Positions 42,206 to 43,707 of a stretch of DNA of 64,000 nucleotides are shown here, one piece after another. The notes under the pieces were generated by a model that worked only from the letters and a program-made list of their open reading frames with translations, ran no database searches and was not told the DNA's origin. The DNA comes from Escherichia coli (GTDB lineage: Bacteria > Pseudomonadota > Gammaproteobacteria > Enterobacterales > Enterobacteriaceae): the NCBI RefSeq assembly GCF_009931435.1, contig NZ_CP043414.1; one strand, 5' to 3'. Each line of letters opens with the position of its first letter. Position 1 is the stretch's first letter. The translations under genes and the position numbers were made by a program.

Positions 42206-42213
42206 TCGGTAAG

Positions 42214-42420
42214 ATGCTTTGTGAGAAGGGCCGCGAAAGCGGCCCTTCAGATTATTGGCAAAGTGTGCGTTGTTCATGTCGGATGCGGCGTGAACGCCTT
42301 ATCCGACCTACAAGATCGTGCAAATTCAATATATTGCAGGAAGTATGTAAGCCTGATAAGCGTAGCGCATCAGGCAGTTTTGCCTTTGCCATCAGTCTCA
42401 AGGGCCGCGAAAGCGGCCCT
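42214..42420. repeat. REP/BIME cluster bounded by a duplicated 18-bp hairpin
   Basis: GGGCCGCGAAAGCGGCCC occurs at 42228-42245 and 42402-42419 flanking REP units; the second copy is followed by a T-run. Confidence 0.6.
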
Positions 42421-42423
42421 TTT

Positions 42424-43332
42424 TTACTTAGTAGAGATAAACGGAACTGTACTGCCGGGGATCATGGTATCGGGTAGCTTACCGTCCCAACGCTCAGCAG
42501 TGGTGAGGGCAACAAGTCCGGGATTATCCCGCAGAGCTTCACCGCGCAGGCGGATCGCTTCTGCTTCAGCCGCACTTTTTAAACGAATAGTTTCAGCCTC
42601 TGCCGCGCCTCTTACGCGAATAGTCTCAGCTTCTGCTTTGGCTGCCGCCAGTTTACTGTCTGCTTCTGCCTGGGCCTGAGTTACCGCTATTTGCGCCTGG
42701 ATTTTCTCTGTTTCCAGATTTTGCTTACGTGTGGCAATGGCGACTTCTGCTTTCATTCGATCTTCAATCGATTTTTCATAAGCGTCAGAAAAATCAATAT
42801 TTTCAATCTGGACACCATCAATCACCACCGGGCCAACAACGGCTTTACGCATTGCATTTTGCAGATCCTGAACCAGTTTTGTACGATCCTGTACCGCGCT
42901 GATGGCGGTATATTGGCCGAAAACGTTCTCCAGTTGGGTTGGCAGCTGGCGGACGATCAGACGCTCTTTTAAAGATTCAATGGTGTTGTAGGTTGTATAA
43001 ACTGCGCCAGCTTCTGAAGGCTTAATATGAAAACTAACCGACACGGTCATTTGTGCCGGTTGCTGGTCGCGGCTGTAGGCCTGTAATCCCTGATAAACCA
43101 CAGCCTGATTACGCGTGGAAATTTTCTCTACGCTTTCCATAAAAGGGATCTTAAAACCCAGACCCGGCTCGGCAACTTTTACGATTTTTCCGTAGCGCAG
43201 CAAAATGCCGCGTTCACCTTCATTAACGGTGTAATACGAGAGAAATGGCAGCACAACCACGGTAAGCACGCCAATGGCGATAGCAATAGATTTTTGTGGG
43301 CGAAATGAGGTTATTGAAACAGGCGCTTTCAT
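42424..43332 (-). CDS. SPFH/band-7 (HflC/prohibitin-like) membrane protein (not a K-12 gene at this position, from memory)
   Basis: 302 aa; N-terminal TM (IAIAIGVLTVVVLPFL), then SPFH-like core and Ala/Glu-rich coiled-coil repeats (AEAETIRVRGAAEAETIRLKSAAEAEAIRLRGEA). Confidence 0.75.
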   Translation of the reverse strand: MKAPVSITSFRPQKSIAIAIGVLTVVVLPFLSYYTVNEGERGILLRYGKIVKVAEPGLGFKIPFMESVEKISTRNQAVVYQGLQAYSRDQQPAQMTVSVSFHIKPSEAGAVYTTYNTIESLKERLIVRQLPTQLENVFGQYTAISAVQDRTKLVQDLQNAMRKAVVGPVVIDGVQIENIDFSDAYEKSIEDRMKAEVAIATRKQNLETEKIQAQIAVTQAQAEADSKLAAAKAEAETIRVRGAAEAETIRLKSAAEAEAIRLRGEALRDNPGLVALTTAERWDGKLPDTMIPGSTVPFISTK

Positions 43333-43707
43333 GAGAATCTTCCTTGAGTAAAGTGTGGGAATATGTCACATGAGGTGAGGAGAAAACAGCCAACAGGTGA
43401 GAATTCAGAATCTATAAAGGGGGAGAGCGAAAAACATCGGCTAAAAAAGTATGTTTTCGAACATTCAATAGATAAATAGAGATATGCATCACAAATACAT
43501 AGGCAGATAAAACATTGGTTTTGTGATAAACATAACAAACACAAACTTGACTTTATAAGTATAAATTTCATGTTGTTGTTATTTAACATTTTATTATTTT
43601 GGTTCATGTTTTTTTTCTTCTCGCGTGCCCAATTGCTTTCATTAAATCGCACGAGTATTTTATTTTTACCGCCGGACGGTACCCTAAAAATAAAATAAGG
43701 ATAATTT

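Follow-up and report, generated by a model that had tools for sequence, protein, structure and literature searches.

The interval between the transketolase gene tktA and cmtB, in a 64,000-nucleotide stretch of Escherichia coli DNA (RefSeq assembly GCF_009931435.1, contig NZ_CP043414.1; the whole stretch is referred to below as the window), contains one long open reading frame (ORF), which encodes a 302-residue protein of the SPFH (Band_7) type. On balance, we regard this ORF as a chromosomal gene that is functional, encodes a prohibitin/HflC-type SPFH protein, and is old at this site. By analogy with its relatives of solved structure, the protein is most likely a periplasm-facing subunit that self-assembles into a ring or cage on the inner membrane. 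A preliminary description of this DNA, made from the letters alone, had reported the 302-residue SPFH ORF beside an AT-rich tract and a hairpin/REP cluster, and every element observed there holds. The gene and the segments of its product are arranged as follows.

42424-43332, minus strand: SPFH coding sequence, 302 residues, 'prohibitin family protein'; the sole long ORF of the interval
43339-43345, minus strand: Shine-Dalgarno sequence AAGGAAG, 6 nucleotides 5' of the ATG
43234-43290, minus strand: predicted transmembrane helix, residues 15-33, from hydropathy and flanking charge, with a K/R-rich tail before it
42703-43230, minus strand: SPFH/Band_7 domain, residues 35-210, Pfam PF01145
42526-42786, minus strand: single long helix, residues 183-269, from the AlphaFold model; presumed coiled coil of a cage wall
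42538-42636, minus strand: three 11-residue repeats, residues 233-265, inside the long helix
42427-42525, minus strand: C-terminal tail, residues 270-302, marked by its conservation and modelled with low confidence in the monomer

A Pfam search matches residues 35-210 to Band_7 (PF01145) with E=4e-30 across model positions 2-176 of 176, supporting the SPFH/band-7 assignment first made from the sequence alone. Hydropathy places a hydrophobic segment at residues 15-33, and the tail N-terminal to this segment contains K and R residues. The AlphaFold monomer model, built with 30 homologues (mean pLDDT 82.5), has a transmembrane helix (residues 12-32), an alpha/beta domain (33-181), an uninterrupted helix of 87 residues (183-269), and a tail of low confidence. 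Ala and Glu make up 40% of the long helix, which carries the 11-residue repeats AEAETIRVRGA, AEAETIRLKSA, and AEAEAIRLRGE, in agreement with the N-terminal transmembrane segment and Ala/Glu-rich coiled-coil repeats described previously. Escherichia proteins have three AEAExIRxxxA repeats, those of Kluyvera, Klebsiella, and Pseudocitrobacter two, and a single E. albertii variant one; one repeat more or fewer would change the wall helix by about three turns. Small in-frame deletions are also seen in other E. coli cluster representatives, with lengths of 280-309 residues. The 33 C-terminal residues belong to the most conserved of the family, with N270, L276, A279, W282, G284, L286, P287, M290, P292, P297, and F298 invariant, yet they are unstructured in the monomer model, a combination that fits a segment folding only in the oligomer.

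In terms of distribution, a megablast search with the interval as query, over 5426 complete E. coli genomes, recovers the gene at full length at the tkt site in 1818, where its annotation is always 'prohibitin family protein'. A gene-only query raises the number to 1830, including CFT073, LF82, SE15, an ST131 isolate, and O145:H28. In K-12 MG1655, tktA and cmtB are adjacent, with 313 bp and no gene between them, and alignment of the tktA-cmtB interval bears out the earlier statement that K-12 has only intergenic DNA here. The gene order yggP-cmtA-cmtB-[gene]-tkt-loiP is found in E. whittamii, Escherichia sp. MOD1-EC7003, E. albertii, and E. coli. The order [gene]-tkt-loiP recurs in Pseudocitrobacter, with different genes on the far side, and Kluyvera has mscS-fbaA-pgk-epd-[gene]-tkt-loiP-speB-speA. 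The presence of the convergent gene/tkt pair in other Escherichia species, Pseudocitrobacter, and Kluyvera indicates that the pair predates Escherichia and that a loss is the simplest reading of the K-12 state; from this synteny, K-12 most likely lost the SPFH gene, and the source genome shows no gain. Synonymous divergence (dS) from the gene of the window is 0.15 for SE15, 0.41 for E. whittamii, 0.78 for E. albertii, and greater than 1 for other genera. The ratio of nonsynonymous to synonymous divergence (dN/dS) is 0.014-0.059 in comparisons with SE15, E. whittamii, E. albertii, Pseudocitrobacter, and Kluyvera, values that point to strong purifying selection.

The novelty implied by the preliminary description, that of an accessory island acquired recently between tktA and cmtB in this lineage, does not survive these comparisons, in which the gene is present in 1830 of 5426 genomes, is already annotated, and stands next to tkt in other Escherichia, Pseudocitrobacter, and Kluyvera. 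An island would be in keeping with the absence of the gene from K-12 and about two thirds of E. coli, with the repeats on one flank and the AT-rich DNA on the other, and with relatives on plasmids and in jumbo phages. The convergent gene-tkt order in E. albertii, E. whittamii, Pseudocitrobacter, and Kluyvera argues against it, as does the growth of dS with taxonomic distance. Moreover, the GC content of the gene (48.6%) is near that of the whole window (51.8%), mobility genes, a tRNA, and att-like ends were not found at the locus, and the BIME on the flank is an ordinary chromosomal repeat that is younger than the gene. Recent acquisition is largely refuted, and we give it next to no credence. 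An origin in mobile elements deserves slightly more weight, although it too is improbable: the family might mainly serve phages and plasmids, through membrane protection or manipulation of FtsH during phage infection or plasmid carriage, with the chromosomal copy domesticated or residual. PHROG 200, a family labelled 'lipoprotein', matches the protein at 3e-62. Full-length homologues with 49-52% identity occur in the jumbo phages Cronobacter GAP32, Serratia phage BF, the Erwinia pEa_SNUABM phages, and Yersinia fHe-Yen9-04 (where the annotation reads 'membrane protease family protein y2843'), and Enterobacter and Kosakonia plasmids carry full-length homologues of about 70% identity that travel alone. 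However, the PADLOC defence models gave 0 families at E<=0.01 for the protein, the chromosomal gene keeps its synteny across genera and evolves under strong purifying selection, and the phage copies, at most 52% identical, look like captures from hosts.

The old chromosomal gene can be fitted to a simple history of the locus. An ancestral SPFH gene would have been convergent with tkt, with one bidirectional terminator hairpin serving both, and about two thirds of E. coli, K-12 included, would have lost it by a deletion that also swapped the terminator and left the upstream spacer as a strongly diverged remnant. In gene-less genomes (K-12, strain H3), about 230 bp of the spacer (roughly 43400-43640) is 51-76% identical to the gene-carrying alleles, whereas the genes flanking the spacer are 95-97% identical between the two types, and the K-12-type allele has a different terminator hairpin, GGTCGCTTCGGCGACC. 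The diverged spacer and the other terminator imply that the alleles are old or that the spacer was replaced, and not a simple recent deletion.

Among the SPFH proteins of E. coli, the sequence is 25% identical to HflC, 23% to HflK, and 26% to QmcA (E=6e-8), and YqiK gives no significant match (E=0.05). Scores against the NCBIfam equivalog models fall below the cut-offs for both hflC (TIGR01932, 60.8 versus 134.4 bits; NF008259, 53.3 versus 427 bits) and hflK (TIGR01933, 37.7 versus 159.4 bits; NF008181, 34.9 versus 660 bits). Orthology to HflC, HflK, QmcA, or YqiK was considered and is excluded by identities of 26% or less and by scores far under the cut-offs, which disposes of the caveat, attached to the first account of the gene, that it could be a known E. 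coli paralogue such as QmcA or HflC. When the family profile is compared with sequences in the PDB, the best match is HflC (1e-20, residues 19-164), followed by HflK (8e-13), prohibitin-2 (6e-11, residues 30-248), PHB1 (3e-7), QmcA (6e-7), and stomatin (2e-6). A Foldseek search ranks HflC (7vhq_G, 2e-17) and PHB1 (8rrh_A, 4e-15) at the top, then cage subunits of erlin, stomatin, and QmcA; whole-protomer matches to HflC, PHB1/2, erlin, stomatin, and QmcA span E values of about 1e-17 to 1e-12 (QmcA 8z5g_A, 3e-12). All solved full-length SPFH proteins that match the model, itself that of a monomer, are subunits of closed rings or cages.

The sequence thus files the protein as prohibitin/HflC-type. 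Hinderhofer et al. (2009) described SPFH3 (HflK/C) and SPFH4 ('p-prohibitins') as related subfamilies that are oriented, or predicted to be oriented, toward the periplasm, and their table has SPFH4 members for E. coli E22, Shigella flexneri, and Shewanella, possible counterparts of the present protein (PMC2636767). The protein itself has near homologues at 95% identity in Shigella and at 56-59% in Shewanella, and the 'SPFH4, p-prohibitin' group appears to be the one that includes it.

The N-terminal flank of the transmembrane helix carries a net positive charge in the majority of the 30 homologues, unambiguously in about 25, and the helix is followed by Y-T-V-N-E-G-E-R-G, where HflC has V-V-K-E-G-E-R-G. 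HflK and HflC have been described as exposed to the periplasm, and QmcA and YqiK as facing the cytoplasm (PMC10434171). The positive flank, the EGERG motif, and the orientation of HflK/C together lead us to predict an N-in/C-out, periplasm-facing topology. A short K/R-rich N-terminus would then stay in the cytoplasm, one transmembrane helix would anchor the protein in the inner membrane, and the SPFH domain, the 87-residue helix, and the conserved tail would face the periplasm, as in HflK/HflC. The protein would probably self-assemble into a closed ring or cage that sets a patch of membrane apart and could retain or protect membrane proteins or corral lipids. The precedent of HflKC and mitochondrial prohibitin makes FtsH a candidate client. 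A single gene would suffice for this assembly, and an NfeD partner would not be needed.

The lack of such a partner had been called unusual for a stand-alone SPFH protein, an assessment that does not hold: it is normal for the HflKC and prohibitin-type subfamilies, the 2009 prokaryotic census listing SPFH3 (HflKC), SPFH4 (prokaryotic prohibitins), and SPFH6-12 without an NfeD partner (PMC2636767). Scanning one genome per species yielded 214 relatives, and 80 related loci were used to compare neighbourhoods. Neighbouring genes are kept only within genera, and no neighbour is conserved overall. With phmmer, no YbbJ/YqiJ-like ORF was detected at E<=10 among ORFs of at least 50 residues in the 80 loci and the 64-kb window, a single-sequence query being weak for this divergent family, and small upstream ORFs at the related loci are, on inspection, unrelated to NfeD. 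The same results bear on the notion that the protein is a cytoplasm-facing stomatin/flotillin-like scaffold, as are QmcA and YqiK, that uses an NfeD partner from elsewhere, for example YbbJ or YqiJ. E. coli does encode two NfeD-type proteins at other loci, and the SPFH fold and the 26% identity to QmcA are shared. We nevertheless find this arrangement hard to credit, as the N-terminal tail is positive whereas the N-terminus of QmcA begins directly with the hydrophobic helix, the profile ranks HflC, HflK, and prohibitin over QmcA and stomatin, and none of the 80 family members has an NfeD-like ORF nearby.

A closer rival retains the periplasmic orientation and has the protein act as an extra HflC-like subunit that joins HflK and/or HflC in mixed cages, retuning FtsH regulation in carrier strains. 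HflC is the closest solved relative, the N-terminal transmembrane-EGERG motif is present in both, the predicted topology is the same, and hflKC is present in essentially all E. coli. On the other hand, the identity to HflC is just 25%, the C-terminal tail is family-specific and highly conserved, and the family is found on its own in plasmids, phages, and a variety of chromosomal contexts, favouring self-sufficiency. Mixed cages are therefore unlikely in our estimation. We would place at a similarly low level the proposal that a fifth E. coli SPFH protein forms a second periplasmic cage competing with HflKC for FtsH in lineages of extraintestinal pathogenic E. coli.

Several points weigh against a functional, self-assembling, periplasmic prohibitin/HflC-type protein that is ancestral to the site. 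Its oligomerisation, its periplasmic orientation, and FtsH as its client are drawn from homology and the positive-inside rule. In sequence it is nearer the N-terminal half of HflC than the eukaryotic prohibitins, so that the label 'prohibitin' reflects architecture and the database name. SPFH4 proteins tend seldom to co-occur with HflKC, although Shewanella has both in the 2009 table (PMC2636767); contrary to that tendency, hflKC is present in 5425 of the 5426 E. coli genomes, and the SPFH gene in 1830. It follows that the SPFH protein adds to HflKC and cannot replace it. The polarity assigned to presence and absence comes from synteny in a few outgroup genomes, and no sigma-70 consensus promoter was found in a scan of 42100-43800. 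Finally, P. aeruginosa showed no detectable phenotype when SPFH paralogues were deleted (PMC13086221), and for this reason the role of the protein may be subtle.

The second result concerns the repeats at the 3' end of the gene, where the SPFH gene and tktA converge. The remaining features of the locus are listed here.

40214-42205, plus strand: tktA (transketolase), an ORF annotated as tkt in matching genomes; convergent with the SPFH gene
42206-43707: the studied interval between tktA and cmtB
42226-42247: hairpin copy 1, AAGGGCCGCGAAAGCGGCCCTT, the left copy of a 22-bp direct repeat, followed by CAGATT and without a T-run
42248-42399, plus strand: BIME-1 type repeat, 152 bp, consisting of left arm, Y REP, L linker, inverted Z1 REP, and right arm
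42278-42311: Y REP, within the BIME-1 at the tkt site
about 42312-42349: L linker; its Rfam ES036 match, 42312-42354, runs into the next REP
42347-42375: inverted Z1 REP, within the BIME-1 at the tkt site
42400-42427, plus strand: hairpin copy 2 with T-run, intrinsic-terminator-like for tktA and just beyond the SPFH stop codon on the minus strand
43333-43707: AT-rich divergent control region, 375 bp, common to the SPFH gene and cmtB
43708-44151, plus strand: cmtB (PTS mannitol-type IIA), a context gene

The sequence GGGCCGCGAAAGCGGCCC occurs exactly twice in the window (42228-42245 and 42402-42419), each time inside a perfect 22-nucleotide direct repeat (42226-42247 and 42400-42421; spacing 174). 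The repeats flank the REP pair, as expected from the earlier observation of two hairpin copies bracketing a REP cluster. In a terminator scan, hairpin copy 2 has a stem of 9 pairs, 7 of them GC, plus the T-run. With a Y REP, a long L linker, and an inverted Z1 REP, the element between the hairpins fits BIME-1 (RIP/RIB, or 'RU-3' in the naming of Delihas 2007) as defined previously (PMC3333891, PMC2759123). Its linker matches Rfam ES036 with 48.9 bits against a gathering threshold of 37.6. This match to ES036 (the CssrF small RNA), and a sub-threshold one to naRNA4 (CssrE) on the REPs, merely mark the repeat element here. Per E. coli genome, a query that contains the BIME-1 has a median of 15 matching places.

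In Pseudocitrobacter and Kluyvera, 44-46 bp separate the two stop codons and contain a single hairpin, GAGAAGGGCCGCGAAAGCGGCCCTTTTT, which is the shared bidirectional terminator of tkt and the SPFH gene. E. coli ETEC1738 also has the 44-46 bp spacer with one hairpin, and in all three the sole hairpin is that of copy 1. The Escherichia species examined have an extra 174 bp, made up of the 152-bp BIME-1 and the second 22-bp hairpin copy. The number of these units is zero in ETEC1738, one in the window, SE15, and R32_14_1F, two in EF5-18-41, and three in Escherichia sp. MOD1-EC7003 and in tandem on a metagenome contig (L126, 2694-3061). Tandem Repeats Finder missed both the 174-bp unit and the 33-bp coding repeats of the long helix, which came from alignment. 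By an approximate junction query, about 1268 genomes have at least one unit, and some 470 match just to the hairpin. A count of 189 genomes with at least two units, also from a junction query, was discarded, its top match being a one-unit allele in which two partial matches had been joined.

The window contains a second BIME-1 (56060-56174, inverted, 88% identical) between fbaA, which ends at 56008, and mscS, which starts at 56366. This copy is flanked by a different local terminator hairpin, AGGCCCGCTCTGCGGGTCTTTTTT and AGCCCCGCTCTGCGGATCTTTTTT at 56032-56055 and 56200-56223, with a spacing of 168 bp. Roughly 1700 of the 5426 genomes have an allele of this site that is 167 bp shorter, and 3725 have the full-length one; the shorter allele, checked in EC21Z-151, has one hairpin and no BIME. 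A metagenome scan with the linker motif sampled 17 distinct BIME-1 sites. At 4 of the 17 sites, the flanking direct repeats are local GC-rich hairpins with 167-174 bp spacing, and the repeat scores at these four are 14-56 against a maximum of 12 in shuffled controls. Two of these four, on metagenome contigs (L097, about 14070-14260; L100, minus strand, around the match at 1492-1511), have the duplicated hairpins GCGGCGCAATTGCGCCGCCT and ACGGGTGGCGTTGCCACCCG at a spacing of 173-174 bp. The hairpin is different and locus-specific at each of the 4 sites, and 2 sites have matching 'empty' alleles with a single hairpin.

The duplicated hairpin looks like a target duplication made on insertion of a BIME-1 beside a terminator, followed by unequal recombination. 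In an ancestor of Escherichia, BIME-1 would have entered just 3' of the shared terminator hairpin, duplicating 22 bp, and the resulting 174-bp unit would then have varied from 0 to 3 copies between strains. As a tentative generalization, about which we retain considerable doubt, BIME-1 may land directly 3' of an intrinsic-terminator hairpin and copy the hairpin (about 16-33 bp) to its far side, and the resulting terminator-BIME-terminator unit of 167-174 bp may be able to amplify in tandem (0-3 copies at tkt). No statement that BIME-1 makes target duplications was found in the literature searched, and novelty is uncertain. Bachellier et al., in 1997, reportedly may already have described flanking repeats of BIME-1. 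If the pattern is true and undescribed for BIME-1 of E. coli, it would be a concrete target-site rule, with a parallel in the YPAL element of Yersinia, for an element whose spread is unexplained; the hairpin-BIME-hairpin arrangement is in any case a small, testable clue to BIME-1 insertion.

A 152-residue ORF on the plus strand (42221-42679) crosses the BIME and runs antisense to the 3' end of the SPFH gene. From its length and the RU-3-like peptide GCGVNALSDLQ..., this ORF appears to match 'hypothetical protein c3518' of CFT073, which Delihas 2007 treated as an ORF that contains RU-3. As a gene call, the 152-residue ORF is almost certainly spurious.

Beyond the opposite end of the SPFH gene, the 375-bp spacer (43333-43707) has a GC content of 32.5% against 51.8% for the window, in line with the AT-rich region shared with cmtB that was reported at the outset. 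The Shine-Dalgarno sequence is near-invariant in Escherichia, with one of six aligned sequences differing (AAGGATG). Alignment reveals conserved blocks 5' of the gene, to which no promoter or regulator is assigned. Within the spacer, at 43480-43560, lies an inverted pair, ATCACAAA ... TTTGTGAT, that is kept across Escherichia species and partly in the K-12-type allele, and it holds TGTGA-N6-like half-sites resembling CRP boxes. The inverted pair might have a role in regulating the cmt operon and/or the SPFH gene.

For an 'E. coli', the source genome diverges to an unusual degree: over 15 kb, its identity to most complete genomes is 96-97% (25000-40000 and 36000-49500 were tested). Only 2020CK-00188 reaches at least 99% over that 15-kb stretch, and R32_14_1F, from a goat, shows 99.3% identity across the 4.7 kb surrounding the gene. 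Identity to E. whittamii is about 93% and to E. albertii about 92%. The dagR/dgaE stretch (about 25000-33000 of the window; D-glucosaminate utilisation according to the annotation) is present at full length in 561 of the 5426 E. coli genomes, and most genomes cover just 43-49% of a 15-kb query spanning it.

As a sequence finding, the SPFH gene is ordinary: public genomes already annotate it, its family has been catalogued since 2009, and K-12 lacks it through a lineage-specific loss. Literature searches turned up no paper on the gene, CFT073 c3518 being the sole related item. Work on membrane microdomains of E. coli counts four SPFH proteins, HflK, HflC, QmcA, and YqiK (PMC10434171). The present protein is a fifth, strongly conserved and encoded in one third of sequenced strains, among them CFT073, LF82, and an ST131 isolate, all of them pathogenic B2 strains. 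Should it build a periplasmic cage of its own or be a member of HflKC, results obtained in K-12 on FtsH control, aminoglycoside tolerance, or respiration may not apply directly to strains that carry the gene.

The closest precedent found for the arrangement of BIME-1 and hairpins is the YPAL/RU-2 element of Yersinia. It is REP-like, about 168 bp long, and on insertion duplicates 3-26 bp of target spanning or adjoining a dyad symmetry (De Gregorio et al. 2006, as summarised in PMC2229807). Here, the 152-bp BIME-1 is flanked by 22-bp copies of the local terminator hairpin, although E. coli BIME-1 (Y-L-Z1) belongs to a different element family. Ton-Hoang et al. described BIME-1 as single-copy and proposed that TnpA-REP is able to capture flanking sequence (PMC3333891); unlike the single-copy BIME-1 of that work, the unit at the tkt site is amplified 0-3 times.

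The SPFH protein is closest to HflC/HflK (SPFH3), the subunits of the FtsH-HflKC cage (PDB 7VHP, 7WI3, and 9CZ1), which supply its best sequence and fold matches and share the K/R tail, one transmembrane helix, the EGERG motif, the SPFH domain, a long helix, a conserved C-terminal tail, the lack of an NfeD partner, and the predicted N-in/C-out topology. It differs from them in being encoded by a single gene, not an adjacent hflK-hflC pair, and in its length of 302 residues versus 334 and 419; HflC/HflK are tied to FtsH, a link that for the SPFH protein is one of analogy. With PHB1/PHB2 and the SPFH4 group it has in common a size of about 270-300 residues, a transmembrane anchor, an SPFH domain, one coiled-coil helix, a short conserved C-terminus, the absence of an NfeD partner, and the RefSeq label 'prohibitin family protein'. 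Unlike the PHB1/PHB2 hetero-oligomer, it is presumably a homo-oligomer, and, unlike the prohibitins, it is nearer HflC in sequence and coexists with HflKC. With QmcA-YbbJ and YqiK-YqiJ (SPFH1 and SPFH2, with NfeD partners), it shares the SPFH fold and a cage-type protomer, whereas its predicted orientation is the opposite one and it has no NfeD neighbour among the loci searched.

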